Positions 804-52,715 of a DNA stretch of 64,000 nt are shown here, one piece after another. Within the stretch, counting starts at the first letter, position 1, and every line of letters begins with the position of its first letter. Under the pieces are notes generated by a model. The model worked only from the letters and a program-made list of their open reading frames with translations, made no database searches and had not been told where the DNA came from. Position numbers and translations under genes: made by a program. This DNA comes from Planctomycetota bacterium. Lineage in GTDB: Bacteria > Planctomycetota > PLA2 > JAEUHO01. The DNA is taken from contig CBDCTJ010000007.1 of the NCBI GenBank assembly GCA_965222115.1, positions 1,504,001-1,568,000 on the forward strand. The letters run 5' to 3'.

Positions 804-830
804 TTGCGCGGCGTAAGGCAAGGGACGCCC

Positions 831-12757: not shown

Positions 12758-12852
12758 CTACGCATCGTACGAGCATTGCTTCGGCGCTGCCACGACCTTG
12801 CCATCGTGGGCGTTTCCACCGAGGATTGCGGCGATACGCATGGAGACGATTG

Positions 12853-30741: not shown

Positions 30742-30788
30742 CGCGCGTCTTCGCAATGTGAAATCGCGATGCCATTGGAGAGTAGGTA

Positions 30789-33349: not shown

Positions 33350-33351
33350 TC

Positions 33352-35883: not shown

Positions 35884-38800
35884 ATGACTATGCTTCGAGA
35901 TCAATCTCGCACTTGGATCGTTGTCCTAGGCCTCTTCGCCGTTGCCGCGAGCAGTCCGTTGAACGTGGTGTTTGCGAAGAAGGACAAACCCACGCTCGAT
36001 GATGCGGCCAAGCAGGTTGTGGCCGAGGCTCTTGCAGACAAGGAGGATGCCGAGAACGCGGCCCACAATCTCGATCGTACATTCGCACTCAAAGCCTATT
36101 CGTCGGCCGCGCTCTTGGAGCATCTTCAGGCGGTAGACAAAGAAGATGCGAAACGCGCGCGCGCCGAGAGCCTTTTGTTGCATCTCTACTTGCGCGCCGG
36201 CAAGTTGCGCGATGCGTTGACGATTGCCGAGACGCAATGGAAGGATGGCGAGGCCGGTCGAAAGCTAAAGCTCGGCGAACTTCAAGAGGCCGCTGGTCGA
36301 AACGCGAAGGCACTGGATACCTATCTTTCGCTGATAGGCGAGGCCGGGGACGTCGGCTGGACCGCATCGCTGCGTGCGGCGCTCTTGCGACTTGATGGTG
36401 TCGCGAGCGCTGGGAAGACTGCCGACAAGAAGCCGACCGCCAACTCAAAGAAGCCCGAAGACAACAAAGGCGCAGACGATGGGGACAATGACAACGATCC
36501 GCTCAACCCGGTGAACATCCTCACTGAGGCGGTGAATCGTTCGCCCAAGTCCGTGCGCGAGGCGCGCGGCAACCGCGCAGCGATGGTGTTAGCGCTCACG
36601 GGCAAGGCGGACAAGGCGCGCGCGCTCTACCACGTTCCCAAGAACGCCGAGAAACCCGTGCGCGCGATGTTGCGCATGGCGCAGTGGTGCTTGCATGACC
36701 GTGCGTGGGACGAAGCGCGCACGTGGGCCGATAAAGCGATCGATGTGGCCACGCTCAAGCGGGATCGACGCTACGCCTATGCGCTGTTGACTGAGGCCTA
36801 TCGCGGGACGAATGATCTACCAAAGTTGATCGAACGATTGCTAGCGAGCGAGTCGTTATCTGATGAGGCACAGGATCTCTTAATCGAACTCCTGCGCGAG
36901 ACCGGGCAGCCCGAGAAGGCGTTGGCATTCTTCAATGAGGAAAAGCGCGCATCGTTGACACCTGAGATTCAGCGCCAGTTTCTTGAGATGTTGCGAGACG
37001 CCGGTCGTACCAAGGACATGGTGGCGCGCTACAAAGACGCCATTCACCGCGAGCCCGAACGACTGCTTTGGCGTTCGGGGCTGTCGCGCTACTACCTCGA
37101 AGAAGGCACGCCGGCGCAAGCGAAAGCAGTTTGGCGTGATCTCTTGGACGTGAGTAAGACATTTACCCCCGAGCGAGGACCGTGGATTCAGTTGGGTGCT
37201 GCCGAGGAGATTGCGTCGCAGGGGCTCCACAAACTTGCTCTTGAGCTTGGGGAGCGAGCGGCCAAGCACGAAGCGACCCAGTTTCCCGCCCTGCTTTTTC
37301 TCGCTGATGTGCATGTGCGCACCGGAAAGACAAAGTTGGCTGAAGCCGTACTCGATCGCTTTGACAAAGCGGCCGCGCCCAAAGCCAAAGAACGCCTTCA
37401 ACTGGCTGAGGTCTATGAGCGCCTGGGACGTAAGGATCGCGCGGCCACGGTCTTGGAGGACTTGCGCCGCGCCCGCGGCGAGGACAAGAGCGAAGAAGAT
37501 CTCGACATGCGCCTCGCCGTGTTGCTCAGCGAGGTCGATCGTGACGCCGACGCATTGAACCTCTGGCGCCACGTGTGGAAGCGCGTCAAAGCCCCTGCTC
37601 GCCGACAGTATGTGGAGGATCGCATACTCACCGTCGCAGCACGCGAAGGCGAACTGGCCGACATTGCAGTCGATCTCGAAGAGCGATTGGTGGCCGGAAA
37701 AGCCAATGAACGCGAGAGTGGGTTGCTGATTCGTCTGTATACGCGCGTGGGTGATCCCGTGTCGGCCGCCGAGGTGTTGGAAGAGCGCGTTAAGCGTCAG
37801 AAGTCCGATCAGGTCAAGGCGCTTCAAGAACAGGCGCGCATCTATCTCACCTGTACCGACTACTTCAACTACGAAGAGGTCGTTCGAAAACTGATTGATC
37901 TCGATCCCGAGGGTGAGCGCGATTATCTGCGTCAACTGGCCATGAGCGCATTGGAACGCGGACGTCCGCTTGAAGCGCGCGGTTCCCTTCGTCGCCTGAA
38001 GCAACTCGAAGGCGGCGTGGATGGCGCCGAGTTTGAAGCCGGCATCCTCGCGCTTGGTGGACTAAATGACGATGCCATGGCCGCCTATCGCAAGGGTCTG
38101 GCTGCGCATCCGGAACGCATTGAAGTGTATCTCCTGCTTGCCAAGACCATGGCCGCGGCGAAACAGAAGGACGAGGCGATTGGCATGTTCCAGTCGCTAC
38201 TTACAAGCGCAGAGAAGGACGATCTGTTCACCGTGGCGGTGGATGGGCTGCTCAATATGGAAGCGCCCAATCCTGTACTGCAATGGGCCCGCCGCCGCAT
38301 TGTGGAGCGCGTATCGAATCGCGTCCATCGCGTTTTCTTCTATCAGCTTTACGGCGATCTATCCGAGCAGTTGAAAGAAAACCATCGCATGGTCGTGGCC
38401 CTTTCCGAGTCACTTCCTGTGGCGGGCGAGCGCCGTGGTTCGATCCTGCGCGAGATTATGGACATCTCGTCGCAATCGGGCTTTTCGCCGTTCTACTACG
38501 GGAATCGGCGTGAAGAGGGCGGTGGAACCAAGCTTCGGTACGGTCGCCGACTACTTTTGTTGGGCGATGTGGTACCGCCTCAGGTGTATTTGGACCTTGG
38601 CCGCGCGTTTTTAGAGAATGATGAAGTGAGCGTGGCGTTGCGTACGTTTTCATTGGCTCGCGACCTGCCCGACTTCGATGCGTTTCGCAAACAAGTGGCT
38701 GAAACTTTTGAGACGGCGGGTTATTTGCCTGAAGCGCTCCGATTGTATCAACGCGCATTGATTGGCCGAGCGGAGAGCATTTCCTTGCTCAAGAAAATCG

Positions 38801-41800
38801 GCACGCTTCACGAGTTAGAAGGTCGGTATAAGGAGGCCTTTGCCCGCTATCGCCGCGCGATGAATTTGATTCTCTTGCAGCGTCCCTTTGCCGATCGTGC
38901 AGCGCTTGAGAGCTTTGATGATCGCCCCTGGATGCGGTATTGGGGTGGCAAGAACCTCGACGCCTACGACGAACACTACAGCGACACGTTGCGCGCCTAT
39001 CTAGCGACCATGCCGGAGGGCGTCGAGTTACAACCGGTTATCAAGGAGCATCTCGATTGGTTGGAAAAGGACTTTGCGGAGGTCGAGGAAGCGCTTGCGA
39101 AGCGCGCGAAGGCAAAGAAGCCCTCTGATGACGACTCAAAGATCCGCGCAGCGTCGTTTCCTCGCCTCAACAGCCGTATCAAGTTGGTGAGGCGACTCGC
39201 GCTAGCAACCGGCGACCGGGCGCTGGCCGACCGCCTTGACAAACGATTGATTTCGCTTTTTCCGAAAGACCTTTCGCTGGTGAAGACGCTGGTGCGCGGT
39301 CGGCTTGGTTGGGGACTTGTGGCGAGTGCGCTGACCATGATTGAAACTGCGTCGCTTGAGGAAGATGCCGCAAGTGAGTTATTCCTATTGGCCGGCAAAC
39401 AACCAGAAAAACCCTCCGTAGCTGCACTCGCACCTAGTGAAGCCGCGCGTGTGTTGCTGGCGCCGCTCATGCGCGGCGATGAAGACACCGTGCGATCGTT
39501 GTTGCGTCGAGTCGATGCATCGGATGCAAAGAAGGACGACATTCCTCATATCAAACTGCTGGCCAAGGCCGCGGTACACATGAGTGAGCATGAGGTGCTC
39601 CTGTCGCTCGGTCGCCGCTGGCTTCACTTGTCGGCCACATCGGGATCGGGATGGTCGCGCGGCAACGAGATTCGCGACGCGCTCGACTTCTGTTGGCCTC
39701 ACTTTGACGACGTATCACGGAAGAGCCTTGTGCATCCGCTAGGACGCGTTGTCGTGAAGGAGCCGAAAGAGGCGCAGTACGTTTTACCGATCATCGAGGA
39801 CGTGCAGTCCGCGCTCGATCTTTCGTTGTTGACCGAAGAGGAGGCTAAGAAGGTCATCGATGAGTTGGTAGGGGGAAAGCGCCGCACGTCGATGTACTCA
39901 GCCGCCAAGTTCTTTGCCCTGCTGCCCAAGGACGCTCACACGGAGTTTCTGCGCAAGATTTTTGAAAAGGAGCCCATAGAACGACGTGCCCGATCCGTGA
40001 TTTGGGCGCTGGGTCAGCTAGCGGGCAAGTTGTCCGACGACGCCCTGGATTACCTCGAAGCCACCATGCGCGGCAGCATCAAGAAGATGAAGCAACCCAT
40101 GCGTTGGTGGTCCTACGGCCAGACGCTCACATCCAATGAGGCCCAGGCAGAACTCAACTTCCGTTTTCTGAAGGTCATTACCGGTGACGATCCTGAAGAG
40201 CCGCCCCACTTGGCCGCGCTCGCCCTCGCCTATCGAACGATGGGGAAGAAGGAAAAGGCGTGGACGTATGCCGAGAAAGCGTTTTCGACGTTTATGGAGC
40301 GCGGCGCCGATGACTGGACGCTCCGTGCGCCGCTGAGTCGCGTCATCGATGTGTTTGGTGAAGACCACGCAGACGCGTTTCTCAAGGTGATCGACGAACT
40401 CGAGAAGAAGAACGGGCCCAACGAGACCACCACCACGTGGAAGCTCAATCTCCTTTCGCGCGACAAGAAGCCCGAGGAGGTGCTCGCGTTGTTGGAGAAG
40501 GCGCGGAAGAAGGACCCCAAGAACAAGTCGATTCTCAATCGCTTGCAGAATCAGTATCGAGCCATGGGCAGCCCCATGGACGCTATCAAGCTTATTCAGA
40601 AGCGCCTTGAGGATGCGCCTGACGACCAGGCACTCAAGAACCAGCTCTCGACCGCGTGGAGTCGTCTCAAACATCCGATCAATGCCGAAAAGGCCAAACG
40701 TGGTAAGGACAAGAAGAAGGGGCCCTCGAAAGAGGATAAGGAGCGCGCAAAGAAGAAGTTCAAACCCGCCACTGTCAAGCGCATTAAGGAAGCGATTGAG
40801 GGCAAGCAGCTCGACAAGGCGCGGGTGCTCATGCATCAAATGTGGCGCGGCATTTCGCCTGGCACGTCACGCAATCGCTATGGCCCGGTGATTTACTACG
40901 TCAATGGTGTTCCTCAGTTGCATGGGGGCGGCTCGCTCGCGAACGCGCTGTGGCCCGAAGAGAAGAAGAAGGATCGTCGCGTTCGGCGTGGCGGACTTCC
41001 CGATTTCGAGGCCATGCGGAAGGCCGAGGTCGAACGACGCGAAAACAAGAAGGCTGACCGGCGCCTTAGTGCCTATGAAGTGCTCGTTGATCATGAGTTT
41101 GGTCGTAAGGAGATCGAGCGCGAGCTGCGCACGATGTCAGGGTCGGGATTGGAAGGCGCCAGCAATCTGTTGCGCGCCCTCAATCGCAAACGTGAAAAGG
41201 AGATCGGCAAAGAGAAGCTGATCGAAGAACTTCTTGAGCGCGTTACAAGTGGTCACGCGCGCAGCGATACGTTCTATCGGTTGCTCTTGCTTGCCGAGGA
41301 TCAGGCCGAGGCACTCAGCGACAGCGGCGAACGAATCGCCACGAGCCTCATGACCAATGTCGCGCCCGACGATTCGCGCCTCATCCTTCGGTTGGCCAGC
41401 TGTTTGGCGGCGGCAGGCAAGACCGACGCCGTGGAGCGACTGTTGCGTTGGTGCGCCAGACTGGCCACGTCCGGCGGTGGCTTTGATCCCTTCGGCGGTT
41501 ACAGCCCGCGAGCGAGCACCCACGGTGTGATTCATGCGATACGAAAGCACCTAGAGGGTGAGCAGCGCAATCGATCGATCGAGGCGGTACTCGCCATGAG
41601 TGATCCGCGCAAGCCGAAGCTCAAGCGCAGCACCGATCGCAATCCGTGGAGCAACTTCGGTGCCGACGAGTCGTATTCGACGCTGTTGCTCAATACGTGG
41701 AGCGAGGTCATAGGTGCCGAGGCCACGCTCGAGCGATTTGAGTCCATTGTGAAGCGAGCGCTAGATACCGAACGATCGGTGCAGCGAAATGCGGCAGCTA

Positions 41801-42636
41801 CCGTTGCGCGTCTCGCGGCCGCGTCGGGCAACTATGAACTCGCACTGCGTGCATTGGAAGTCGCTGTGTGCGCCTTCCCCGACTGGTCGTTCCCCGATGA
41901 CGTCAAGCGAGACCCTAGCAATCGTTACTTCTATGAGCACCGGGAGCGTATCGCGCACAACTCAAGGGGAATCGGCTCCGATATGCTGTATGCCTTGTTT
42001 GTTCGTCAACCGGATGATGGTGAGGATGCGGTTGACAATGAGGCATCGAAGACCGATGCGGACGAAGAAGACGAAGAGGATCGCAAACCCGAATCAGACG
42101 AGGACGCAGACGACGATGAGGCGATCGACGCTGCTAATGCAAAGATCGTTTGGCTCGTGCATGCGTCAGAGACCATCGATGGGTGGGTAGAAGACAAGCG
42201 GCTGAAGGCGGCGGGTGCGTTTGGCGCTCATTGCGTCATCGCCGTCGAGCTCTTTCGTGCAGGGGCCGAAGAAGAAGCCGCGGCCCTACTTACGAAGGCC
42301 CAGCAACAAGCTCATGAGAATCCGCGTTGGGCGCTGTGGATTGCCGACGCGTATCGCGAAATGGCGCAAGAGGATGAGGCCATCGCGATTGAGCGCCAAC
42401 TGCTAAAGAGTCGAACAATCTACTTGGAGCGCGTGCCCCGAGTCGTGCGTGCCGTCTTGGAACAAGACGGTCCCCAAGCGGCCCTCAAGCTCGGCAACGA
42501 CGTGTCCAGGTTTACGCTGCACCCCGATCTTTTGCGCGTGCTCATCGAGTCTGCGTCTGCGGCAAAGGACGAGAAGGCCGAAGCCACGTGGCGGGCCATG
42601 GCGAAGGAAGCCTGGCCGAAAGACGTCTTCAAATGA
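35884..42636 (+). CDS. Giant (2250 aa) secreted TPR-repeat protein
   Basis: Signal peptide and all-helical TPR-like repeats (e.g. AMAAYRKGLAAHPE, ALRLYQRAL); abuts the VWA gene (TAAATG). Confidence 0.85.
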   Translation: MTMLRDQSRTWIVVLGLFAVAASSPLNVVFAKKDKPTLDDAAKQVVAEALADKEDAENAAHNLDRTFALKAYSSAALLEHLQAVDKEDAKRARAESLLLHLYLRAGKLRDALTIAETQWKDGEAGRKLKLGELQEAAGRNAKALDTYLSLIGEAGDVGWTASLRAALLRLDGVASAGKTADKKPTANSKKPEDNKGADDGDNDNDPLNPVNILTEAVNRSPKSVREARGNRAAMVLALTGKADKARALYHVPKNAEKPVRAMLRMAQWCLHDRAWDEARTWADKAIDVATLKRDRRYAYALLTEAYRGTNDLPKLIERLLASESLSDEAQDLLIELLRETGQPEKALAFFNEEKRASLTPEIQRQFLEMLRDAGRTKDMVARYKDAIHREPERLLWRSGLSRYYLEEGTPAQAKAVWRDLLDVSKTFTPERGPWIQLGAAEEIASQGLHKLALELGERAAKHEATQFPALLFLADVHVRTGKTKLAEAVLDRFDKAAAPKAKERLQLAEVYERLGRKDRAATVLEDLRRARGEDKSEEDLDMRLAVLLSEVDRDADALNLWRHVWKRVKAPARRQYVEDRILTVAAREGELADIAVDLEERLVAGKANERESGLLIRLYTRVGDPVSAAEVLEERVKRQKSDQVKALQEQARIYLTCTDYFNYEEVVRKLIDLDPEGERDYLRQLAMSALERGRPLEARGSLRRLKQLEGGVDGAEFEAGILALGGLNDDAMAAYRKGLAAHPERIEVYLLLAKTMAAAKQKDEAIGMFQSLLTSAEKDDLFTVAVDGLLNMEAPNPVLQWARRRIVERVSNRVHRVFFYQLYGDLSEQLKENHRMVVALSESLPVAGERRGSILREIMDISSQSGFSPFYYGNRREEGGGTKLRYGRRLLLLGDVVPPQVYLDLGRAFLENDEVSVALRTFSLARDLPDFDAFRKQVAETFETAGYLPEALRLYQRALIGRAESISLLKKIGTLHELEGRYKEAFARYRRAMNLILLQRPFADRAALESFDDRPWMRYWGGKNLDAYDEHYSDTLRAYLATMPEGVELQPVIKEHLDWLEKDFAEVEEALAKRAKAKKPSDDDSKIRAASFPRLNSRIKLVRRLALATGDRALADRLDKRLISLFPKDLSLVKTLVRGRLGWGLVASALTMIETASLEEDAASELFLLAGKQPEKPSVAALAPSEAARVLLAPLMRGDEDTVRSLLRRVDASDAKKDDIPHIKLLAKAAVHMSEHEVLLSLGRRWLHLSATSGSGWSRGNEIRDALDFCWPHFDDVSRKSLVHPLGRVVVKEPKEAQYVLPIIEDVQSALDLSLLTEEEAKKVIDELVGGKRRTSMYSAAKFFALLPKDAHTEFLRKIFEKEPIERRARSVIWALGQLAGKLSDDALDYLEATMRGSIKKMKQPMRWWSYGQTLTSNEAQAELNFRFLKVITGDDPEEPPHLAALALAYRTMGKKEKAWTYAEKAFSTFMERGADDWTLRAPLSRVIDVFGEDHADAFLKVIDELEKKNGPNETTTTWKLNLLSRDKKPEEVLALLEKARKKDPKNKSILNRLQNQYRAMGSPMDAIKLIQKRLEDAPDDQALKNQLSTAWSRLKHPINAEKAKRGKDKKKGPSKEDKERAKKKFKPATVKRIKEAIEGKQLDKARVLMHQMWRGISPGTSRNRYGPVIYYVNGVPQLHGGGSLANALWPEEKKKDRRVRRGGLPDFEAMRKAEVERRENKKADRRLSAYEVLVDHEFGRKEIERELRTMSGSGLEGASNLLRALNRKREKEIGKEKLIEELLERVTSGHARSDTFYRLLLLAEDQAEALSDSGERIATSLMTNVAPDDSRLILRLASCLAAAGKTDAVERLLRWCARLATSGGGFDPFGGYSPRASTHGVIHAIRKHLEGEQRNRSIEAVLAMSDPRKPKLKRSTDRNPWSNFGADESYSTLLLNTWSEVIGAEATLERFESIVKRALDTERSVQRNAAATVARLAAASGNYELALRALEVAVCAFPDWSFPDDVKRDPSNRYFYEHRERIAHNSRGIGSDMLYALFVRQPDDGEDAVDNEASKTDADEEDEEDRKPESDEDADDDEAIDAANAKIVWLVHASETIDGWVEDKRLKAAGAFGAHCVIAVELFRAGAEEEAAALLTKAQQQAHENPRWALWIADAYREMAQEDEAIAIERQLLKSRTIYLERVPRVVRAVLEQDGPQAALKLGNDVSRFTLHPDLLRVLIESASAAKDEKAEATWRAMAKEAWPKDVFK

Positions 42637-42712: not shown

Positions 42713-44137
42713 ATGACTCAGATTCAGCTTCAAAGTTACGGGGCTTCACGCACGGTCACCGGAAGCCGTCATTTGCTTCACTACGGGAAGAAGCGCATAC
42801 TCCTGGACTGCGGGCTGTTTCAAGGGCGTCGCGACGAATCCAACGAACGCAATCGACACATTCCCTTTGCAACCGACGCAGTGGTACTCAGTCACGCACA
42901 TATCGATCACTCGGGCGCCCTGCCGAGTCTTGTCCGCAGTGGTTTTCGCGGAAAGATTCACGCCACGCCGGCCACGCGCGACCTCTGCTACTCCATGTTG
43001 GCTGATTGCGCCAAAATTGCGGCGTCCGAAGCCCGCTATCTCAACAAGCGCCGCAAGAAGAAGCGAGGGGATCCCAAGATTCGGCCCATTTACTCAATGG
43101 CCGACGTGAAACGTACGCTCTCCCAGTTTGTTTCGCACCACTATGAAGAGGAGTTCACGGTGTTGCCCGGCATTCGCGCGCGCTTCCGTGATGCCGGCCA
43201 CATTATTGGTTCTGCAGGTGTTCTTCTCACGGCAAAGGACGCTCCCTCGATCTATTTCACCGGCGACGTTGGGCGTCGCATGTATCCGATTCTGAAAGAC
43301 CCCGAGCCGCTGCCCACGGCCGATGTTGTGATATCAGAGTGCACGTACGGCACCCGAGACCATGCCAATGCGCGCATTTCGTCCGACGAGTTGATCGAAG
43401 AAGTTCGCCGCGTCTTCGCACGGAAGGGCAAACTCCTTATCCCCGCATTTTCCGTAGGTCGCACGCAGAACATTATCTACGCCATTGCGCAGGCCTGGCA
43501 CGAAGCCAAAGCGCCGCGCGTGCCCGTGTACGTCGATTCGCCTTTGGCCGAGAAGGCCACACACGTCTTTGTGGGCCATCCGGATTGTTACGACGAAGAG
43601 ACGGAGTCGTTTCTTTCAGAAGGCGGCAAGCCGTTCTATCCCAAAGGCGTGCGCTACGTTGAATCGCGTGACGAGAGTAAGAGCCTCAACAAGAAGAAGG
43701 GGCCCATGATCATCATTGCGGGCTCGGGCATGTGCGAAGCGGGTCGCATCGTCCATCACTTGAAGCATGGACTTGACGATCCTCGCAATACCGTGTTGCT
43801 CGTAGGCTGGTGCGCGCCGCATACGTTGGGACGGCGCCTCATTGACGGACGCAATCCCGTGCGTGTGTTGGGTCGCATGGTGGATGTGCGGGCTCGTGTC
43901 AACAAGCTCAATGCCTATTCCGCACATGCGGGCCGATCCGATCTGCTTAACTTCTTGGCACCCGCGCGTCGCAAACGCTCTTCGATCTATCTCGTGCATG
44001 GGGAGGAGTCCACATGCATGGCCTTCTCCAAGAATCTGATCGACGAGGGGTTTCGGCGTGTGGTCGTTCCGGAGACCTACGCGCGCTACGACCTTGCGCC
44101 CGCAGGTGCCACCTCGGCGGCGGCTGCAGCGTCTTGA
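42713..44137 (+). CDS. MBL-fold metallo-hydrolase, beta-CASP RNA-processing type
   Basis: GASRTVTGS, LDCGLFQG, SHAHIDHSG, AGHIIGS, FTGD, ECTYG, PAFSVGRTQ, GMCEAGRIVHH, SAHA, VHGE; GGAGG RBS. Confidence 0.93.
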   Translation: MTQIQLQSYGASRTVTGSRHLLHYGKKRILLDCGLFQGRRDESNERNRHIPFATDAVVLSHAHIDHSGALPSLVRSGFRGKIHATPATRDLCYSMLADCAKIAASEARYLNKRRKKKRGDPKIRPIYSMADVKRTLSQFVSHHYEEEFTVLPGIRARFRDAGHIIGSAGVLLTAKDAPSIYFTGDVGRRMYPILKDPEPLPTADVVISECTYGTRDHANARISSDELIEEVRRVFARKGKLLIPAFSVGRTQNIIYAIAQAWHEAKAPRVPVYVDSPLAEKATHVFVGHPDCYDEETESFLSEGGKPFYPKGVRYVESRDESKSLNKKKGPMIIIAGSGMCEAGRIVHHLKHGLDDPRNTVLLVGWCAPHTLGRRLIDGRNPVRVLGRMVDVRARVNKLNAYSAHAGRSDLLNFLAPARRKRSSIYLVHGEESTCMAFSKNLIDEGFRRVVVPETYARYDLAPAGATSAAAAAS

Positions 44138-44215
44138 GAATCGGTCGCATGAATCCACTCGCCGCTGAAGCAAGCGCAGTGGATTTGAAACGGCGGGATA
44201 TCCACAGCGTCTAAT

Positions 44216-44791
44216 ATGGGCCCGGCCGATCGGGTGACGGTCGCATGGAGCCCCGCGATTTCAGATCCATCCACCAAATATCGCGCACTGTCGAGTCGAT
44301 GGGCCGGCCTTATTGTGCGCGCCGTGTGGTGGACCATGCTGCTGCTTCATGTCGTGGTGCTCGCCTTCGTATCGGTTGCCGTCACGCGCGACGGCGTGTC
44401 GATGCAATCTGTCGGGGATGTCGTCGCGCTCCTAGGCGCGATCGCCTTCTTCTACTTCAAGGCGCGTGATGTCGCGTGGTTACGTATTGGCGGGCGAACG
44501 AAGGGGCTGGTCGTGTGGGCGTTGCTTGCGGCGCTTGTTCATCCCCCGGCATTTCCCGCCGACGGATCATGGGCGGAGGAGATCCCGCAGTCGTTGGTCG
44601 CCGTTTGTACGGTGGTCGCCGGCGTGGCTGTTGTGACCCGCGTCATGTCGAGTCGGTTACGCATGTCCGCGCCAAACAAGCCCTCGTGGCGACGGTTGTG
44701 GCAATCGGATCCCGCGCCCATCCTGGTGCGCACACACATGGCTTGGGATGCGCGCGGACCACCTCTGTACGCGTTACCGGTAATTTCCTGA
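44216..44791 (+). CDS. Small multi-pass membrane protein with C-terminal RGPP motif (candidate arrest/leader peptide)
   Basis: About four hydrophobic segments, two with His (LLLHVV, ALVHPP); RGPP at 44753-44764 near the C-terminus; upstream of the heme operon. Start uncertain. Confidence 0.65.
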   Translation: MGPADRVTVAWSPAISDPSTKYRALSSRWAGLIVRAVWWTMLLLHVVVLAFVSVAVTRDGVSMQSVGDVVALLGAIAFFYFKARDVAWLRIGGRTKGLVVWALLAALVHPPAFPADGSWAEEIPQSLVAVCTVVAGVAVVTRVMSSRLRMSAPNKPSWRRLWQSDPAPILVRTHMAWDARGPPLYALPVIS

Positions 44792-44903
44792 CGCGGATAT
44801 CGCTTCTTCGCGCGTTCCTCTTCTGCTGCCGGTAACCCGTGCGCCGCCCCTTCAACCGTGGGCGCCGTGTCTCGATCACGTGGTCCTCGAGAGCAACCAT
44901 CCC

Positions 44904-47180
44904 ATGTCTCATGAACAGTCTGGAGGTATAGCGCCCCCGCGCACGCGCGGCGTTTTGCTTCTCAATCTCGGCTCGCCCAGCGGATGCGACCCGCGTTCGG
45001 TGCGGCGCTACTTGGCCGAGTTTCTTGCCGATCCCGAAGTGATCAAATTGCCGCGCGGTATGCGGTGGTTTGGGAAACCTCTTGCACGCATGATCGCGCG
45101 CTCTCGCGCCAAGCAATCGGCCCACGCCTATGCATCCGTATGGACCGACGATGGTTCTCCCTTGCTCGTGATTTCTGACGCGCAGGGCAGGGCGCTTGCC
45201 CATGTGTTGGGACGTGCATTCGATGTGCGGGTGGCCATGCGTTACGGTCATCCTTCCATTGATGATGTTGTTGCGTCGTTCGTCGAGGATGACATTCACG
45301 ACGTCACAGCGGTTCCGATGTATCCTCAGTTTGCCGGCGCGACCACAGGCACCGCGTTGGCCGCGCTGTATCGCGCCTTTGAACGTCACGCGCGAGACAC
45401 GGAACTTGTCGTTCGCAATGCGTGGTACGACGATGCGGGCTACATTCAGGCCCAAGTCGCGGTACTTAACGAGGCAATCGCGAAGCACGGCCTCACGCCC
45501 GACAACACCACGCTTGTATTTAGCGCCCACTCTCTGCCCGTGGCCTACATCAAGGCCGGCGATCCGTACCAAAAGCACATCGTGGAAACCGTTCACCTTG
45601 TGTCAAAGGCTCTTGGGTGGCCAGAAGAGCGCATCACGCTCGCCTACCAATCCAAGCTTGGTCCGGTGGAGTGGCTCGCGCCGCAAACCGCTGAAGTCAT
45701 CGAATCACTTGCTAAGAATGGCACGCCCAACGTTTTCGTGTGCCCCATCAGTTTCACGGCGGACTGTTTGGAGTCGCTTGAAGAGCTCGATATCCGTGGG
45801 CGCGACGTAGTCGAGGCGCACGGCAGCAACTTCCATCTTTGTCCCGCGCTCAATGATCACCCTGCGTTCATTGAAGCGCTGGCAGGAATTGTCCGACGAG
45901 GGACGCGGCCTATCGCGTTGGAATCCAAATGTTCGGATGATGCTCCCGCTCAGCTCGATGCCGACTGGATGAGCCGGTTGGTGGTCACGGGCCTATCGCG
46001 CGAGCCTGGCGCACTCGACGCATTGCGTGATGCGGGCGTCCACATTACTAACCATGTTGATGATGCCACGTTTGCCGCGAGCAAGCGCACCCACCAAGAG
46101 GTGCGCGGACTCTGCTCGGCGCTAGGGGAGCGTGGTGTCGAGCAGAGTGTGGTTGTTTCTACGTGCGCGCGTGTGGAAGCCTATTCGCTCGCCCCGGCCG
46201 CGAGGGAAACCGAACAAAGGAGAACGATCACACGCTTACAATCAACATTGCTAACGGACGTCCATGACGCCTCCCACCCTCAAGTGCACGTTGGCCATGA
46301 GGCCTACCGACACGCGGTGTTGACCGCGGCGGGGCTATTGAGCTCTTTGCCCGGCGATAACGACGTCAGGCTTCAGCTTTGCAGTGCGGCGCGCACGGCG
46401 GAAGATGTTGCCCACGGCGCAACAGCTATCGGCATGGTCATGACACGGGCAACGGAAGCCGCCCAAGCCCTGTCGGAGGCAACCACGTGGCGTGATTTCC
46501 GCGTGGGGTTTGCCGATGTCGCCTTGGATGGAATTTCTCGATCGGCTTCCGTGGACTGGACGCAGATGCGATCCGTTGTTGTGTTGGGTGGGTCCACGAC
46601 GGCGCGAAGCACAATTCACACGTTGCGAAGGCGTCATGGCGTGCGTCCTTCTCAGCTAACGGGCATCTACCGCACGCGCAGCCGTGGAAAACAGCTCAAG
46701 GCGCTACGCCAAGCGCTGCGCGGCGCAACACCGTTGCGTGTCGATCGCTACGATGACGCGCGTGTACTCGATGCGCTGGCCCATGCCGACGTAATCGTGT
46801 TCGCGCACGATGCTCGTGAACCGATCTGGTCCGCCGAACAGGCCATGACACGCAGCGCTCAGACCAAAGTGATCATTGATTTCAACTCGTTCCCATCCAC
46901 ACGAGGGTTTGAAGACGACGAATCAACCGCATTGTGGCGACTCTGCGACATTGAGGCCGTTGTGCGTGACTATGCGGCTTCACTTGCGGGTTGTGAGCGA
47001 TTCCGCGTTGCCGTCCGCGAGGCGTTGGCGTGGCTTGAAGAACACATTGGTGCCACGCGCGAGGGTCGATCCATGGACGCCCGCCCGAGAAACGACCGCG
47101 TGACATGTACGCGGAGCGGTTGCGGTTGCAAGCGCGCCTTCGTGCCCGAAGTTCGCACGCGTGTGGAGACGGTGTCGTGA
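44904..47180 (+). CDS. hemH: Ferrochelatase fused to a C-terminal glutamyl-tRNA reductase (HemA)-like domain
   Basis: HemH motifs LLNLGSP, PMYPQF, FSAHSLP, YQSKLGPVEWL, FTADCLESLEE, PALND; HemA-like motifs STCARVE, EAYRH..AAGLLSSLPGDNDVRLQL, Rossmann VVVLGG, IIDF. Confidence 0.88.
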   Translation: MSHEQSGGIAPPRTRGVLLLNLGSPSGCDPRSVRRYLAEFLADPEVIKLPRGMRWFGKPLARMIARSRAKQSAHAYASVWTDDGSPLLVISDAQGRALAHVLGRAFDVRVAMRYGHPSIDDVVASFVEDDIHDVTAVPMYPQFAGATTGTALAALYRAFERHARDTELVVRNAWYDDAGYIQAQVAVLNEAIAKHGLTPDNTTLVFSAHSLPVAYIKAGDPYQKHIVETVHLVSKALGWPEERITLAYQSKLGPVEWLAPQTAEVIESLAKNGTPNVFVCPISFTADCLESLEELDIRGRDVVEAHGSNFHLCPALNDHPAFIEALAGIVRRGTRPIALESKCSDDAPAQLDADWMSRLVVTGLSREPGALDALRDAGVHITNHVDDATFAASKRTHQEVRGLCSALGERGVEQSVVVSTCARVEAYSLAPAARETEQRRTITRLQSTLLTDVHDASHPQVHVGHEAYRHAVLTAAGLLSSLPGDNDVRLQLCSAARTAEDVAHGATAIGMVMTRATEAAQALSEATTWRDFRVGFADVALDGISRSASVDWTQMRSVVVLGGSTTARSTIHTLRRRHGVRPSQLTGIYRTRSRGKQLKALRQALRGATPLRVDRYDDARVLDALAHADVIVFAHDAREPIWSAEQAMTRSAQTKVIIDFNSFPSTRGFEDDESTALWRLCDIEAVVRDYAASLAGCERFRVAVREALAWLEEHIGATREGRSMDARPRNDRVTCTRSGCGCKRAFVPEVRTRVETVS

Positions 47181-48598
47181 GCTCTCTAGAGGTTGCCGTT
47201 GATCGCGAGGTGTTTCAGCGATACGTCGGTCTTTCACTTCCGCGGCACGTCTCCTACCCCATGCCCACATGGTGGTCGGCCTTCGACTCACGTGACGCAA
47301 AGCGTCTGATTGACCGTCGCACGGAACGCACGACGTTCCACGATTTGTCTCTGTATATCCACATTCCTTACTGCCAAGCGCTCTGCAAGTTCTGTGCGTG
47401 CTCGCGCGTGATTCAACGCAAGGAGGGGCGCGGTGCGGCGGAGCGAACGCAGGCTTATGTGGATGCGTTGGTGCGGGAGATTCGATCCGCGGGCCGCAGC
47501 AACAACGCCGCGCAGGTTAGGCAGATTCACTACGGCGGCGGCACGCCAACCTATTTGTCGATCGAACAACTCCGTGCGATCCACGATGCCATCAACGATA
47601 CGTTCGACATCGCCTCCGATGCGGAAGTCGCGATGGAGATCGATCCCCGGGTGACGAGTGACGAGCAGCTGGATTTGCTTGCCGACCGTGGCTTCAATCG
47701 ACTGTCCCTGGGCGTGCAGGACTTTGACCGGACGGTGCAAGAGCATGTCCATCGCGTGCAGCCCTACGAGCAAGTGAAGCAGATCGTGGATGCCTGTCGT
47801 GTGCGTGGGATCGCGTCCATCAATTTCGACCTGATCTATGGACTGCCGTACCAAACGATGGACACCGTGTCCGATACGCTCGCGCGTGTGATTGAACTTT
47901 CGCCCGATCGCGTGGCCTACTATCACTACGCACAGATTCCCGACACAATTGCTACCCAAGTTGCCATCCATCATCACGCCATGCCCGATTCCGACGTGAA
48001 GTTGGACATGTTCACGAAGGGCGTGCGTGTGTTCACGGAAGCCGGGTATCGATTCATTGGACTCGATCACTTTGCGCGAGACCACGAGGGGCTTGCCAAG
48101 GCTGAGGACGACGGCGGGTTGCATCGAAATTTTCAGGGCATGACCACCGGAGCGGCGCTCGATCTGGTGGCTTTCGGTGCCAGCGCAATCAGTGAGTGGC
48201 ACGACCTCGGCTATCTACAAAATGTCCGGGATCCCGTTGCCTACGTGAGCGCGATCAACGCAAACGGAACCGCCGTCCATCGTGGAATGGCGCTTTCGGA
48301 TGACGATCGCATCCGCAAGGCAGTGATTCACCAGATTTATTGCCATGCGCGAATAGTGCCCGCTCACATTGAATCCCAGTTTGACATTTCATTTGGAGCC
48401 TATTTCGAACGTGAACTCGACCAGTTGAATGACTTGGCATCAGACGGCATCGTGATTCCCGAGGCCGATGGCTCGTTCTCCATTCCGTATCCTCTGGGAC
48501 GGGTATTGATGCGCAATGTTGGTGCGATTTTCGACGCCTACTTGCCCGACGAGGCCTATCGCGTCGGATGTCGAAGCACCTACTCGACGAATGCGTGA
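47177..48598 (+). CDS. hemN: Oxygen-independent coproporphyrinogen III oxidase (radical SAM)
   Basis: PRHVSYP, LYIHIPYCQALCKFCAC, GGGTP, NRLSLGVQDF, DLIYGLP, GLDHFA, RNFQG. Confidence 0.95.
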   Translation: MSSLEVAVDREVFQRYVGLSLPRHVSYPMPTWWSAFDSRDAKRLIDRRTERTTFHDLSLYIHIPYCQALCKFCACSRVIQRKEGRGAAERTQAYVDALVREIRSAGRSNNAAQVRQIHYGGGTPTYLSIEQLRAIHDAINDTFDIASDAEVAMEIDPRVTSDEQLDLLADRGFNRLSLGVQDFDRTVQEHVHRVQPYEQVKQIVDACRVRGIASINFDLIYGLPYQTMDTVSDTLARVIELSPDRVAYYHYAQIPDTIATQVAIHHHAMPDSDVKLDMFTKGVRVFTEAGYRFIGLDHFARDHEGLAKAEDDGGLHRNFQGMTTGAALDLVAFGASAISEWHDLGYLQNVRDPVAYVSAINANGTAVHRGMALSDDDRIRKAVIHQIYCHARIVPAHIESQFDISFGAYFERELDQLNDLASDGIVIPEADGSFSIPYPLGRVLMRNVGAIFDAYLPDEAYRVGCRSTYSTNA

Positions 48599-49670
48599 AG
48601 CCATGCATCAACGCCTGCCCACAAACGATCTTGTGTTGCGTGCCGCGCGCGGCGAACCGACGCCGCGCACGCCTGTGTGGTTCATGCGTCAGGCGGGCCG
48701 CTTCGATCCTGCCTATCGCGCGCTCAAGGAACGCGAGCAGCGGCCGCTTGAGGCGATGTTCGCCGACCCCGACATAGCCACCGAGGTCACATTGCTTCCG
48801 CAACGCTATGGCGTAGATGCCCTAATTCTTTTTCAAGACATTCTCACAATCTGCGGGCCGATGGGGGCGCGCTTTGTGTTTCGGCCGGGTCCCGTTCTGG
48901 CGCATCCGATTCGAACCGCCCGTGATGTTCAGGGATTGCGTTCCATGAGCCCCGAAGACGACATGCCATATGTGTCGGCCTCGATTCGGCACGTTCTGAC
49001 TTCCGTGGATGGTGCGTTGCCGCTGCTTGGGTTTGCCGGTGCACCGCTCACCGTCGCCGCCTTCATGGTTGCGGGCGAGAGTCCAGGTGCGGACCTTGCC
49101 GACCTCCGGACGATGATGCGCGAGTCACCCGAGGCACTGCACGACCTTATGCGTCATCTCGCTGCGCACACAAGCCGCTATCTGGACATGAAAGTTCGCG
49201 CGGGCGTTCACGCCGTTCAACTCTTCGAATCCATGGCCGATCGTTTGTCTGTAGACGAATACAACACGTGGGCTCTTCCCTATCAGCAACAAGTGTTTAC
49301 GTCGATGCATGAAGCGGCCACGCGAATCATCTTCGCCAAGGGTTTTAGCGACGTTCGTGCGCTGCTTGCCAGTGGCGCCGAGTGTTTGAGTGTGTCCGGT
49401 GACGTAGACCTGCGCGTGGCTCGCGCGCGACCTGACTGTGAGACTGTGGGCATCCAAGGCAACCTTAGCAACGTCTTGCTTCGCGATGGAACGCCCGACG
49501 AAGTGGAGCGTGCCACGCGTGCGTGCATTGATGCGGGGAGGCACAGGGGCCATATCCTCAATCTCGATCACGGGCTCTTTCCTACCACGCCACCCGAGAA
49601 CGTGTCGCGCGCGATTCAAACAGCAAAAACATATGTTGTCTCTGCGCCGACAGGCCCACGCACAGCATGA
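48591..49670 (+). CDS. hemE: Uroporphyrinogen decarboxylase
   Basis: TPVWFMRQAGR, LFQDIL, GFAGAPLT, QLFES, QGNL, ILNLDHG. Confidence 0.95.
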   Translation: MREAMHQRLPTNDLVLRAARGEPTPRTPVWFMRQAGRFDPAYRALKEREQRPLEAMFADPDIATEVTLLPQRYGVDALILFQDILTICGPMGARFVFRPGPVLAHPIRTARDVQGLRSMSPEDDMPYVSASIRHVLTSVDGALPLLGFAGAPLTVAAFMVAGESPGADLADLRTMMRESPEALHDLMRHLAAHTSRYLDMKVRAGVHAVQLFESMADRLSVDEYNTWALPYQQQVFTSMHEAATRIIFAKGFSDVRALLASGAECLSVSGDVDLRVARARPDCETVGIQGNLSNVLLRDGTPDEVERATRACIDAGRHRGHILNLDHGLFPTTPPENVSRAIQTAKTYVVSAPTGPRTA

Positions 49671-51046
49671 GTGCCATTGAAACGAACGTGGCCATCGTAG
49701 GTGGTGGGATTTCAGGGCTTGTTTGCGCGTGGACGCTGGCGCGCGCGGGCACGTCGGTCGCGCTTCTTGAGGCGAGCAACGAGCTCGGTGGCTGCATGCG
49801 TACGTCCCATGGTGACGGCGTGTTGTTTGAACACGGTCCCTTCAACGTCTTGGCGAGAGCGCCTGCGTTTGTCAACTTACTACAAGCGTGTGAATCGGAC
49901 GTGGGTGTGGTGTCGCTGGCCGAGGCAAGTCGCAAACGCTATCTCGCTAAGCGTGGGGCGCTTCATGCGATTCCCATGTCGCCGTGGGGTTGGCTCAAGT
50001 CGCCGTTGCTATCACCCATGGGGCGGCTGCGCCTCTTGCGAGGTGCGCTTGTTAGTCGACGCGCGCCCAAGAGAGAAGAGACGATCCATGAGGCCGCTAC
50101 GCGACGGTTGGGACGCGATGCCGCGGAGGTACTGGTGTCATCGGCCGTGGCCGGTGTGTTTGGTGGCGACAGCAAGCAGACATCACTTGCTGCCGCGTTT
50201 CCTCACGTAAGCGACGTCGATCGGCAAACGCGGAGTCCATTGATGGCGATGGTGCGGCGCGCCAAACAGCGAAAGCGAAGCGATCAAACCCGCCCCGCAA
50301 TGATTAGCTTCAAGAACGGCTTGCAGTCACTGGCGGACTGGCTCGGCGCAAACCTCAGCGATGGCGTATACCGCGAACACTTGGTCTCCTCGATTGTGCC
50401 TCGCGACAACGGCTGGCACGTTCACGCCAAGCATCACGGTCGCGAAGTGACTGTCGAAGCAAACAAGGTCGTTCTCACCACGCCCGCACGTGCCACGGGG
50501 TTGCTCGTGCGTGAGTTGGCGCCGAACGCCTCCGAAGAGTTGATCTCGCTCCCCACGTCCACCATGGCTGTAGTCAACTTGCTCTACGCGCGAAACGACG
50601 TCGCTCATCCGTTGGATGGCTACGGATTTCTCGTCCCCAACACAGAGAGCCAGCCGAAGTGTTTGGGCGCGCTGTTCGCCGACGCGGCGTTTCCACACCA
50701 CGCGCCGGAACATCAGTGCATTGTGCGTGTGTTCTTGGGCGGTCATCGCGAACCCGACATCTTGGCGCGCACCGACAAGGAACTTCGTGCGCAGGCGCGC
50801 GAAAGTGTTGAACCGCTGCTGGGCATCTCGGCTCAGCCTCGTTTTGCGCCCGTCATGCGCTGGCCTCGCGCCATTCCGCAGTACGCGATTGGTCATGCCG
50901 AGCGCATGGCCACAGTCGAGCGCGACGTGGCTCGTTTACCGGGATTGCATCTCGTGGGCAACTACCTGCGTGGGGTGTCAATCAATGACTGCGTGCGTGA
51001 GGCCGACGCACTGGCGAGGCGCATCCTTGCGGGGGAAGCATCGTGA
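49667..51046 (+). CDS. hemG: FAD-dependent protoporphyrinogen oxidase (HemY type)
   Basis: IVGGGISGL, FEHGP, GVFGGD, SFKNGLQSL, GYGFLVP, RWPRAIPQY.IGH, GNYLRGVSINDC. Confidence 0.92.
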   Translation: MSAIETNVAIVGGGISGLVCAWTLARAGTSVALLEASNELGGCMRTSHGDGVLFEHGPFNVLARAPAFVNLLQACESDVGVVSLAEASRKRYLAKRGALHAIPMSPWGWLKSPLLSPMGRLRLLRGALVSRRAPKREETIHEAATRRLGRDAAEVLVSSAVAGVFGGDSKQTSLAAAFPHVSDVDRQTRSPLMAMVRRAKQRKRSDQTRPAMISFKNGLQSLADWLGANLSDGVYREHLVSSIVPRDNGWHVHAKHHGREVTVEANKVVLTTPARATGLLVRELAPNASEELISLPTSTMAVVNLLYARNDVAHPLDGYGFLVPNTESQPKCLGALFADAAFPHHAPEHQCIVRVFLGGHREPDILARTDKELRAQARESVEPLLGISAQPRFAPVMRWPRAIPQYAIGHAERMATVERDVARLPGLHLVGNYLRGVSINDCVREADALARRILAGEAS

Positions 51047-52077
51047 CAATCAGCGAATCCTTGGGCTCCCCGCGAGGGATACCGGAGCGTCCACGGCGCT
51101 TGCGTCGCACGCCCGTCATCGCCAATCTTGTTCGCGAGATACGTGTACACCCAAGTCAACTTGTGCTGCCCGTATTCGTTGTGGAAGGGCGCGAAATAGT
51201 TGATCCCATCGAGGCCATGCCGGGATGCGCGCGGCGTTCCATCGACGCACTGATGTCGCAATGCAAGGAAGCCTACGCATTAGGCATTCGTTCCTTTGCG
51301 CTGTTTCCCAAGATCGACGACGCATTGAAGAATCCCCAAGGATCGGAAGCGCTCAACGAAGACGGCCTTGTTTGTCGGGCCGTCCGGGCCCTGCACGACG
51401 CGCTCCCAGACGCCTGCGTATTTACCGATGTTGCACTTGACCCCTTCTCGTCCCACGGGCACGATGGACTCGTGGCCGACGATGGTCGCGTACTCAACGA
51501 TGAAACCGTTGACATCTTGGCTCGCATGGCCGTTGTACACGCGAAGGCGGGCGCCGACTTTGTGGCGCCGTCCGACATGATGGACGGACGCGTGGGGGCG
51601 ATTCGACGCGCATTGGATGGCGACGGGTATTACGACGTGGGCATTCTCTCGTATTGCGCCAAGTACGCGTCGGCGTTCTATGGACCGTTTCGCGAAGCGC
51701 TCGATTCCGCACCCGTCGATCTTGCGCACGTACCGAAAGACAAGACGACCTATCAGATGGATCCAGCCAATGCGCGTGAAGCGTTGCGCGAAGCAAGGCT
51801 CGACGAGCAAGAGGGCGCAGACCTATTGATGGTGAAACCTGCACTGCCCTACCTCGATATCGTGCATCGACTGTCCATCGCTTCATCGCTGCCTATTGCG
51901 GCGTACCACGTGAGTGGTGAGTACGCGATGGTGCGTGCCGCCGGGGAGCGCGGCTGGCTCGATGCCGACGCCTGCATGCGCGAGTCGTTGATTGCTATCG
52001 CGCGGGCGGGCGCGCGCGTGATCTTTACTTACGCGGCCGTGGACTACGCGCGCTGGTGGCGTTCCACAATGGCTTGA
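51043..52077 (+). CDS. hemB: Porphobilinogen synthase (Asp-type metal site, Zn-independent form)
   Basis: RPRRLR, DVALDPFSSHGHDG, APSDMMDGRV, KYASAFYGPFR, YQMD, MVKP, YHVSGEYAM. Confidence 0.97.
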   Translation: MTISESLGSPRGIPERPRRLRRTPVIANLVREIRVHPSQLVLPVFVVEGREIVDPIEAMPGCARRSIDALMSQCKEAYALGIRSFALFPKIDDALKNPQGSEALNEDGLVCRAVRALHDALPDACVFTDVALDPFSSHGHDGLVADDGRVLNDETVDILARMAVVHAKAGADFVAPSDMMDGRVGAIRRALDGDGYYDVGILSYCAKYASAFYGPFREALDSAPVDLAHVPKDKTTYQMDPANAREALREARLDEQEGADLLMVKPALPYLDIVHRLSIASSLPIAAYHVSGEYAMVRAAGERGWLDADACMRESLIAIARAGARVIFTYAAVDYARWWRSTMA

Positions 52078-52712
52078 GCGAGCGCCTCAAGCGACGGCGT
52101 GGGCGCCTCCACCCAGAGTTCATGACCCGCGGACTGGACAGCCCGACTTGTTGTGGGGCCAAGGCTGGCAAAGGGTCGTGTTTCGTTCTTCAGCGCGGAG
52201 ACGGCCGATGGACTCGTAACGGCAATCACCGTCGCAGATGATACGCGGTCGAAGTCAAACGCGCGCCGCGTTGTTTCATAGACGATGGGTGCCGAGAACG
52301 ATGAAAACCCGTGCGACGTAGGAACGTCTGCGAGATTCGAGCGCGCATACACGACGCGACCGGTGGGGGACTTCCTTCGTAGCGACGTAAAGAGTGCGTC
52401 AACGCCGGGACCCGGACCCATCAGCGCGCACCGTGCGCCGCGCGCTTCGAGAGCATTCTTTGTAGCTGGACCCACGGCGGCGAGTTTCGGTGTGTGCAAC
52501 ATGTGTTCCGGCAGTGCGTCAACCGCGAATGCACTCGTAAGGACGAGCCAGTCGTTTTCACAAAGCGATTCAAAATCAACGGGAAGCTCGTCCACCACGC
52601 GACGTTCGAGTACGGGTTCCAGGAGAACGTCTACGCCAGCATTGCGTAATGCACGTGAAAGGGGGCCACCCTCGGATTCATCTCGCGTGACCCATACGCG
52701 CAAGCCGTCCAC
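52044..52712 (-). CDS. hemD: Uroporphyrinogen-III synthase
   Basis: VWVTR, LTSAFAV, AVGPATKNAL, VYET, TSPSAV, LGPTT; downstream of hemC. Confidence 0.9.
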   Translation of the reverse strand: MDGLRVWVTRDESEGGPLSRALRNAGVDVLLEPVLERRVVDELPVDFESLCENDWLVLTSAFAVDALPEHMLHTPKLAAVGPATKNALEARGARCALMGPGPGVDALFTSLRRKSPTGRVVYARSNLADVPTSHGFSSFSAPIVYETTRRAFDFDRVSSATVIAVTSPSAVSALKNETRPFASLGPTTSRAVQSAGHELWVEAPTPSLEALAQAIVERHQRA

Positions 52713-52715
52713 TGA

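Follow-up and report, generated by a model that had tools for sequence, protein, structure and literature searches.

A four-helix membrane protein family with a C-terminal RGPP motif: a candidate arrest-peptide switch ahead of a planctomycete heme-synthesis operon

RESULTS AND DISCUSSION

A 64,000-nt stretch of a Planctomycetota genome (contig CBDCTJ010000007.1; here the window) carries an upstream open reading frame (uORF; positions 44216 to 44791, + strand) of 191 amino acids that heads the heme-synthesis genes hemH(+hemA-like)-hemN-hemE-hemY-hemB. On balance, we favor the reading that the product of this uORF falls into an unnamed family of inner-membrane proteins with four helices, that the RGPP near its C terminus is an arrest motif of the RAPP class, and that the whole would act in cis as a translational switch for the hem operon. 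All coordinates below are positions within the window, and residues are numbered on the 191-amino-acid form unless stated otherwise. Motifs of this class were surveyed by Fujiwara et al. (EMBO J 2025; PMC12992588), and what we take from that paper refers to the part of its text and source data drawn on here. RAPP and RGPP are reported there as the most versatile and robust arrest cores, RGPP giving the most robust arrest tested; both are depleted from proteomes and enriched near the C termini of small secretory and membrane proteins (PMC12992588). Seven of seven Streptomyces lividans proteins bearing RAPP or RGPP at the C terminus caused stalling in vitro and in vivo, and several of them combine four membrane helices with conserved His or Cys residues (PMC12992588).

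The uORF belongs to an unnamed, conserved protein family

A first reading of the DNA from sequence alone had described a membrane ORF with about four membrane-spanning segments, two of them containing a His. The ORF at 44216 to 44791 (+) bears this out, and its AlphaFold2 model has four helices. The coding score over this interval is highest in the uORF's own frame, the window holds a single copy of the family, and a Pfam scan of the product returned no match. The closest homologue (P0002; 149 amino acids), retrieved in a word-index search, shares 76 of 149 residues (51%) and terminates in ...FAWDARGPPA*; the C-terminal end of the window protein is AWDARGPPLYALPVIS*. Word-index searches are insensitive for this family (2, 5, and 4 hits). 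A profile built from the uORF product and P0002 and run against 1.84 billion representatives recruited 29 proteins of 149 to 217 amino acids at an E value of ≤1e-3, two of which scored ≤1e-10. Three further relatives (P0030 to P0032) were found with P0029 as query; all end in LRAPPA, and for one the source gives the name Planctomycetota bacterium, which makes it the sole family member with a source name.

The alignment of the 29 representatives is numbered on a 155-amino-acid form that counts from a GTG at 44324, so that H9 and H73 correspond to His45 and His109 of the full-length form. H9, F43, H73, and P146 are invariant, and W2, L36, K46, L53, R54, R144, and P147 are conserved in at least 90% of the sequences. 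Both membrane His residues of the initial description are thus retained in 29 of 29 representatives. Pfam and NCBIfam models searched against all 29 members gave no convincing match (best Pfam E value, 0.0067, in one member), a PDB sequence search returned nothing better than an E value of 6.1, and a Foldseek search of the fold found no match at ≤0.001. Unnamed look-alike clusters in the ESM Atlas are commonest in Planctomycetota and Acidobacteriota; the recognition value of 2174 lies below the 2300 mark, which makes them a lead only. Judged from its sequence, the uORF is a real gene of an unnamed, conserved family.

A scan of the genome collection gave one locus from 352 pattern matches, which we rejected as a 28-residue chance match (L001, 5056 to 6861, + strand) unrelated to the family. 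The ORF at that locus, from a Chitinispirillales metagenome-assembled genome, encodes 601 amino acids, soluble in the N-terminal half and hydrophobic with several helices in the C-terminal half.

Two start codons deserve mention. P0002 begins, as MWWT, at the position equivalent to the alternative GTG start at 44324 to 44326 (+). In the full-length form, Arg35 aligns with the family's conserved Arg ahead of Trp (R-x-x-W motif); since the extension matches this motif, translation could plausibly begin farther upstream, for example at ATG 44216, even though P0002 is annotated from the GTG 44324 position. The hexamers TTGAAA (44185 to 44190) and TAATAT (44212 to 44217), spotted by eye, lie just before and overlapping ATG 44216, at a spacing beyond that of the consensus scan. 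If TAATAT is a −10 box, the transcript would begin past ATG 44216 and the GTG 44324 start would apply.

R-[AG]-P-P is conserved at the extreme C terminus of the family

The RGPP sequence is encoded by CGC GGA CCA CCT at 44753 to 44764 (+; residues 180 to 183 of 191) and is followed by eight codons (LYALPVIS) and a TGA, exactly as the sequence-only reading had placed it. A ribosome arrested on CruR has Pro codons in both its P site and its A site (PMC12992588). By analogy with the CruR toeprint, the predicted arrest site would have the first Pro codon (44759 to 44761) in the P site and the second (44762 to 44764) in the A site. GGA, CCA, and CCT are minor codons in this DNA, making up 14%, 5%, and 18% of their synonymous codons, respectively.

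Conservation in homologues, which an arrest function would lead one to expect, is pronounced: a single R[AG]PP, 1 to 8 residues ahead of the C terminus, is present in 26 of the 29 representatives. Within the 27 members that carry R[AGP]PP, the tail after the Pro pair is one residue long in 17 and two residues long in 5. Most profile hits matched the membrane domain alone (e.g., query positions 2 to 95); as their recruitment rested on that domain, the motif is an independent conserved feature. The window itself contains nine R[AG]PP sequences in 941 six-frame ORFs of at least 40 amino acids, three of them within 15 amino acids of the ORF end. A C-terminal R[AG]PP taken alone is therefore within chance for this GC-rich DNA, and its significance comes from the conservation in the family.

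Four of the features by which the RAPP class is recognized in PMC12992588 are found here. The product is a small protein (<300 amino acids) with an R-[A/G]-P-P core near its C terminus; homologues keep the core but vary in the sequence adjoining it on the N-terminal side; four predicted membrane helices provide an N-terminal localization signal; and a same-strand gene lies nearby downstream, the hemH ATG at 44904 being 112 nt past the uORF stop. The uORF product is most likely an arrest peptide of the RAPP class in which the four helices would form the sensor domain.

The membrane domain is tethered to the motif through a linker of constrained length

AlphaFold2 run on the 29-sequence alignment predicted four long helices at residues 2 to 23, 27 to 47, 58 to 72, and 89 to 115 of the 155-amino-acid numbering (mean predicted local distance difference test score, 75; predicted template modeling score, 0.47). 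Membrane helix 1 (44324 to 44389) carries the invariant His45 (codon 44348 to 44350) and the near-invariant Trp38. Helix 2 (44402 to 44464) ends in a conserved FF-x-x-K and runs into a predicted cytoplasmic loop, D-V-x-W-L-R, while helix 3 (44495 to 44554) has the invariant His109 (codon 44540 to 44542) at its outer end. The hydrophobic core of helix 4 (44588 to 44638; all four helices on the + strand) is followed by a basic, predicted cytoplasmic linker. The sequence-only reading was right about a hydrophilic spacer at this place but put it at about 35 amino acids; it is ∼39 amino acids long when measured up to Arg180 from where the hydrophobic part of helix 4 ends.

Lys and Arg residues cluster in the loop between helices 2 and 3 (five) and in the C-terminal tail (eight), and acidic residues occupy the other loops. 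Basic loops face the cytoplasm according to the positive-inside rule, and on this basis hydropathy and charge distribution fit an N-in/C-in topology, the one needed for a stall site at the C terminus. The linker that joins helix 4 to the Pro predicted to sit in the P site spans 42 to 55 residues (median, 51) in 27 members, with P0008 and P0011 dropped for having no motif; its sequence is not conserved. A linker so constrained in length points to force-dependent release from the membrane domain.

With two invariant His in a four-helix protein, the cytochrome b-like proteins that bind heme through a His pair are the natural reference. We found no similarity to them in the Pfam and NCBIfam, PDB sequence, or Foldseek searches. 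The missing similarity to heme-binding membrane families lowers any claim of membership in one, while leaving heme binding itself feasible.

The predicted stall codons are complementary to the hemH start region

Folding of the RNA across the uORF-hemH junction predicted a long-range helix on the + strand. Its 5′ arm (44736 to 44762; inverted repeat I5) consists of the codons for H-M-A-W-D-A-R-G-P-P, and its 3′ arm (44880 to 44907) covers the GTG at 44880, the GAGAG at 44889 to 44893, and the hemH ATG at 44904 to 44906, which the GAGAG precedes by 10 nt. The 21 pairs joining 44736-44762 to 44880-44907 have probabilities of 0.89 to 1.0 in the ensemble fold and are retained in a 321-nt context. 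Among 706 upstream windows of 33 nt, none pairs with the hemH start region as strongly as the stall-site arm, at −31.7 kcal/mol; the next best reaches −28.5 kcal/mol, against a mean of −16.0 and a standard deviation of 4.7. The same energy was matched by only 5 of 3,000 dinucleotide shuffles of the start region and by 39 of 9,138 windows across the 64 kb. The complementarity of the stall codons to the hemH start region is unusual.

The sequence-only reading had instead proposed a local hairpin, TCTCGA/TCGAGA, over the GAGAG. The complementary sequences are present (44870 to 44875 and 44887 to 44892, together spanning 44870 to 44892, + strand), but the hairpin is not favored or populated in the predicted ensemble (pair probability, ∼0.01), and we discarded it as the operative structure in favor of the long-range helix between stall codons and hemH start. 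The pyrimidine-rich tract noted after the uORF is indeed there: 44795 to 44860 (+) is 67% pyrimidine, with C exceeding G (26 C, 18 T, 16 G, and 6 A in 66 nt). An independent promoter in 44792 to 44903, named in advance as an observation that would count against control by the uORF, did not come to light. A scan of 43900 to 45100 found no sigma-70-like promoter, the scan covering consensus types only, and the two terminator-like sites detected both lie outside the interval between the uORF and hemH. Rfam models run over the whole window at gathering thresholds gave no match.

The space between the long-range arms is closed by a predicted internal hairpin of 15 pairs (44767 to 44842, + strand; inverted repeat I2), which spans the uORF stop and contains TTACCGGTAA. 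This sequence is a perfect 10-bp palindrome at 44774 to 44783, in the tail codons of the uORF, and has a partial second copy, CCGGTAAC, at 44829 to 44836, 55 nt downstream. The two make up the core of the 15-pair hairpin and could equally be a protein-binding site. The sequence ACCGGTAA occurs three times in the window versus 0.79 expected, a count that was reached in 6 of 100 shuffles.

A distant relative also precedes a ferrochelatase gene

Within the rows seen of the source data of PMC12992588, two relatives of the uORF family were recognized, by eye and not with an alignment tool. One of them, JSU86_06420 of CP070827.1 (176 amino acids), ends in RLRAPPA and lies 160 nt upstream of a ferrochelatase gene (PMC12992588). 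By eye, it displays the family hallmarks: a Trp and a His in helix 1, FF-x-L-K...D-x-x-W-L-R, a His ending helix 3, and one residue past the Pro pair. The window uORF and this relative are ∼23 to 30% identical, and both precede ferrochelatase. At least five rows in the source data have ferrochelatase downstream (PMC12992588). We set aside another of these, a 188-amino-acid ORF with a mid-sequence RAPP, as unrelated to the family (PMC12992588). RAPP uORFs may be common in planctomycetes, at least one of them belonging to the uORF family.

Comparison with known arrest peptides and heme controls

The uORF most resembles the RAPP/RGPP peptides that PMC12992588 describes ahead of genes outside protein localization, which have fewer than 300 amino acids, four predicted helices, R-[AG]-P-P near the stop, and a downstream gene in the same orientation. 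It also shares with them a conserved His in the membrane domain, where His or Cys was proposed as the sensor (PMC12992588). The likeness lies in these described features, and the published examples differ in being from Actinomycetota, whereas Planctomycetota is the sole source-given name in the uORF family and the target here is a heme-synthesis operon (PMC12992588). One family relative nevertheless stands in the source data of that paper as an unremarked row. The regulatory mode is less new than the sequence-only reading took it to be, as four-helix RAPP/RGPP arrest peptides before non-secretion genes already figure in PMC12992588. That reading knew of no such mode in tetrapyrrole synthesis, and we found no paper linking a RAPP/RGPP arrest peptide to this pathway. 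The main text of PMC12992588 does not mention heme, ferrochelatase, or porphyrin, and literature searches for arrest peptides with ferrochelatase or the heme operon, for RAPP with heme, and for planctomycete heme regulation found nothing relevant. What is new is thus probably the unnamed family and its heme-synthesis target, four-helix RAPP/RGPP stalling peptides before varied genes being known already (PMC12992588).

CruR (DUF2946), a copper-responsive uORF of Bordetella pertussis (Roy et al. 2022, PMC9426467, as quoted in PMC12992588), is another related system. Its C-terminal RAPP is required for downstream regulation, and a ligand bound by the N-terminal part was proposed to govern release (PMC12992588). 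The two differ in target, since CruR precedes a TonB-dependent receptor and the uORF precedes hemH, and in build, the DUF2946 rows seen in the data being shorter, Cys/His-rich, and without the four-helix layout of the uORF family (PMC12992588). The Pfam DUF2946 model had no match among the 29 members at an E value of ≤0.1.

The Sec-pathway monitors ApdA, ApdP, ApcA, and SecM place an R-A-P-P or R-A-G-P core at the peptidyl-transferase center within a variable N-terminal context (PMC12992588). They are secretory or single-anchor proteins encoded upstream of secA, secDF, or yidC, whereas the uORF product has four helices and is encoded upstream of hem genes. With hem genes and neither secDF nor yidC downstream, its position is not that of the ApdA/ApdP/ApcA group. 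In SecM, MifM, and VemP, the stalled ribosome unmasks a downstream ribosome-binding site (RBS), and the predicted helix between 44736-44762 and 44880-44907 would permit an output of this type at hemH. Heme synthesis in bacteria is controlled by turnover of HemA (glutamyl-tRNA reductase), by Irr, by Fur/PerR-type repression, and by HemX. To our knowledge, none of these controls uses ribosome arrest by a nascent peptide. The uORF would have in common with them the target pathway and, possibly, the logic of end-product feedback.

Proposed mechanism and its weighing

We propose that the four helices are inserted cotranslationally with both termini in the cytoplasm, as the charge distribution suggests, and that the ribosome would then stall with its P site on the first Pro codon (44759 to 44761) and its A site on the second, as in analogous peptides. 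In ribosome-free mRNA, the stall codons (44736 to 44762) are predicted to pair with the hemH RBS and start (44880 to 44907). A stalled ribosome would occupy approximately 44745 to 44776, melt most of the helix, and prolong exposure of the hemH start, so that translation of hemH(+hemA-like) would rise and that of hemN-hemE-hemY-hemB would follow by coupling. The stall may be relieved by an event in the membrane domain, 42 to 55 residues upstream, in which helix 4 inserts or packs or a ligand binds. Control of hemH translation through the modeled stall-codon/start-site helix, and of the operon by coupling, is the best-supported output. If it operates, heme biosynthesis joins the pathways under RAPP-class arrest peptides, with a posttranscriptional control point on a ferrochelatase that is fused to a hemA-like domain and heads hemH-hemN-hemE-hemY-hemB. 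It would also bear on a question raised in PMC12992588, namely what brings about release when the role of an arrest peptide is other than monitoring Sec or YidC.

Several results weigh against this switch. Arrest at the RGPP is, for this family, predicted by analogy, and three members depart from the exact motif: P0008 has RAPS at the aligned position, followed by a long tail, P0011 has none, and P0016 has RPPP. The eight-residue tail of the window protein is the longest among the 26 members with R[AG]PP, so that a stalled ribosome would stand farther from the intergenic RNA than in most relatives. The long-range helix is predicted from one DNA locus. The fold of 44700 to 44930 as a whole shows no excess of stability over shuffles (z = −1.07; 32 of 200 shuffles match it), and the codons used do not significantly favor the pairing, since equally good pairing was seen in 568 of 5,000 usage-weighted synonymous variants. 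Blocking 44745 to 44776, the assumed footprint of the stalled ribosome, left the unpaired probability of the start region unraised (0.39 versus 0.43). With the block, the opening energy came down in the shortest context alone (14.4 to 9.1 kcal/mol), the values in the longer contexts going from 7.8 to 8.6 and from 9.5 to 8.2 kcal/mol; GC-rich RNA offers the hemH start other pairing partners when the stall arm is blocked. Finally, the second relative in the source data, JNJ77_18815 of JAEUIE010000054.1 (175 amino acids, ending in PRAPPVR), is followed after 276 nt by a DUF1559 gene (PMC12992588). The adjacency to hem genes anticipated by the sequence-only reading thus holds in two of three contexts, the hemH operon of the window and the ferrochelatase gene of CP070827.1, and fails in the third, JAEUIE010000054.1. 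Because JNJ77_18815 precedes a DUF1559 gene and no hem gene, the link to heme is not family-wide.

This third context lends itself to an explanation in which the stalling peptide monitors membrane-protein insertion or the general state of the membrane, not heme, and controls whichever gene follows, hemH being one of several interchangeable contexts. We regard this as rather unlikely. In its favor, DUF1559 proteins are among the downstream classes enriched for RAPP uORFs (112 RAPP versus 68 AAPP; PMC12992588). The constrained linker of 42 to 55 residues would fit a ligand-free, force-sensing design. There are precedents in membrane-anchored MifM and in CliM, both monitors of the YidC insertase. 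However, planctomycete genomes are very rich in DUF1559 genes, so that the adjacency could be incidental; two relatives only ∼23 to 30% identical, in the window and in CP070827.1, each precede ferrochelatase; and two invariant His in membrane helices would be superfluous for a pure insertion monitor. In a different alternative, the protein would work chiefly in heme metabolism itself as a membrane component, such as a small binder of b-type heme or porphyrin or an anchor for the membrane-associated terminal enzymes, and the stall would serve the protein's own biogenesis as a targeting or cofactor-loading pause and not the control of hemH. Conservation of W38, H45, F79, K82, L89, R90, and H109 exceeds the needs of a mere stalling platform, the uORF shares an operon with heme enzymes, and thermodynamic modeling gave no clear switch. 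We nonetheless hold this explanation to be doubtful, given that the stop follows 1 or 2 residues past the Pro pair in 22 of 27 members, a hallmark of regulatory arrest peptides, that the complementarity of the stall site to the hemH start is out of the ordinary, and that the Pfam, NCBIfam, PDB, and Foldseek searches revealed no similarity to any solved structure or family.

Control could also be exerted at the level of transcription. In tnaC, the behavior of the ribosome at the end of the leader peptide governs Rho termination; here, the C-rich, G-poor tract at 44795 to 44860 would be a Rho loading site, and termination by Rho ahead of hemH would hinge on what the ribosome does as it finishes the uORF. 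The composition of the tract (67% pyrimidine, 26 C versus 16 G in 66 nt), the 112-nt untranslated gap past the stop, and the failure of the scan to find an intrinsic terminator in this gap agree with such a scheme. Even so, it is quite improbable, since a ribosome stalled at 44759 to 44764 would reach only to about 44776 and leave the tract uncovered, and the tract is largely base paired in the predicted fold. The nine R[AG]PP in 941 six-frame ORFs (three near an ORF end) and the absence of a Pfam match might suggest that this ORF, or its motif, arose by chance in GC-rich DNA and has no function, but that reading has next to no probability left in view of the conserved family, its invariant residues, and a motif present in 26 of 29 members.

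Returning to the arrest-peptide switch, its ligand, if there is one, is a matter of speculation. Heme, acting as end-product feedback on the two invariant membrane His, is the most attractive ligand because of these His and of the place before ferrochelatase in two distant relatives. Such logic would parallel, by analogy, the copper proposal for CruR (PMC12992588). In its full form, the family would be a nascent-chain switch that senses heme, protoporphyrin, or iron. The arrested four-helix bundle would capture heme via His45 and His109, the force of folding would release the arrest, the stall-codon/start-site helix would re-form, and translation of ferrochelatase and the hem operon would fall; with heme scarce, the stall would persist and the operon would be translated. 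In view of the DUF1559 context, we keep this specific version at a low probability and offer it tentatively. Were it true, an arrest peptide embedded in the membrane would place tetrapyrrole synthesis under cotranslational feedback from its end product. The family offers a clean design in this respect, with two invariant membrane His, a length-constrained linker, and predicted stall codons that pair with the start of the regulated gene.

The heme operon and the remainder of the window

The first gene after the uORF is hemH (44904 to 47180, with an alternative GTG at 44880), which encodes ferrochelatase (TIGR00109, 287 bits). It is followed on the same (+) strand by hemN (47105 to 48598), hemE (48516 to 49670), the protoporphyrinogen oxidase gene hemY (49667 to 51046), and hemB (51043 to 52077). 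The five ORFs overlap or abut, these coordinates being ORF extents and not start calls. The C-terminal half of the hemH product resembles glutamyl-tRNA reductase (PF05201 GlutR_N, E value of 2e-12; hemA models at 44 to 51 bits, far below their cut-offs), a fusion in which the last enzyme of the pathway bears a domain related to the first. Together with hemD, hemC, and a class III aminotransferase gene that fits hemL, which converge on the − strand, the operon forms a near-complete heme-synthesis cluster on both strands at 44904 to 54919.

The remainder of the window reads as an ordinary Gram-negative bacterial chromosome. Immediately upstream of the uORF, 42713 to 44137 (+) encodes a beta-CASP metallo-beta-lactamase ribonuclease, for which the best NCBIfam model is the type VII CRISPR-associated Cas14 (379 bits versus a cut-off of 800 bits), followed by archaeal aCPSF1. 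Farther upstream, at 29740 to 42636 (+), genes for a MoxR AAA ATPase and for DUF58, BatA-like, and VWA proteins are followed by that of a repeat-rich protein of 2,250 amino acids with acidic and basic low-complexity stretches. Two further ORFs encode fusion proteins: at 804 to 2138 (+), LpxC is joined to a FabA/FabZ-like dehydratase, and at 12826 to 15396 (+), a Ser/Thr protein kinase is joined to an FGE-sulfatase domain.

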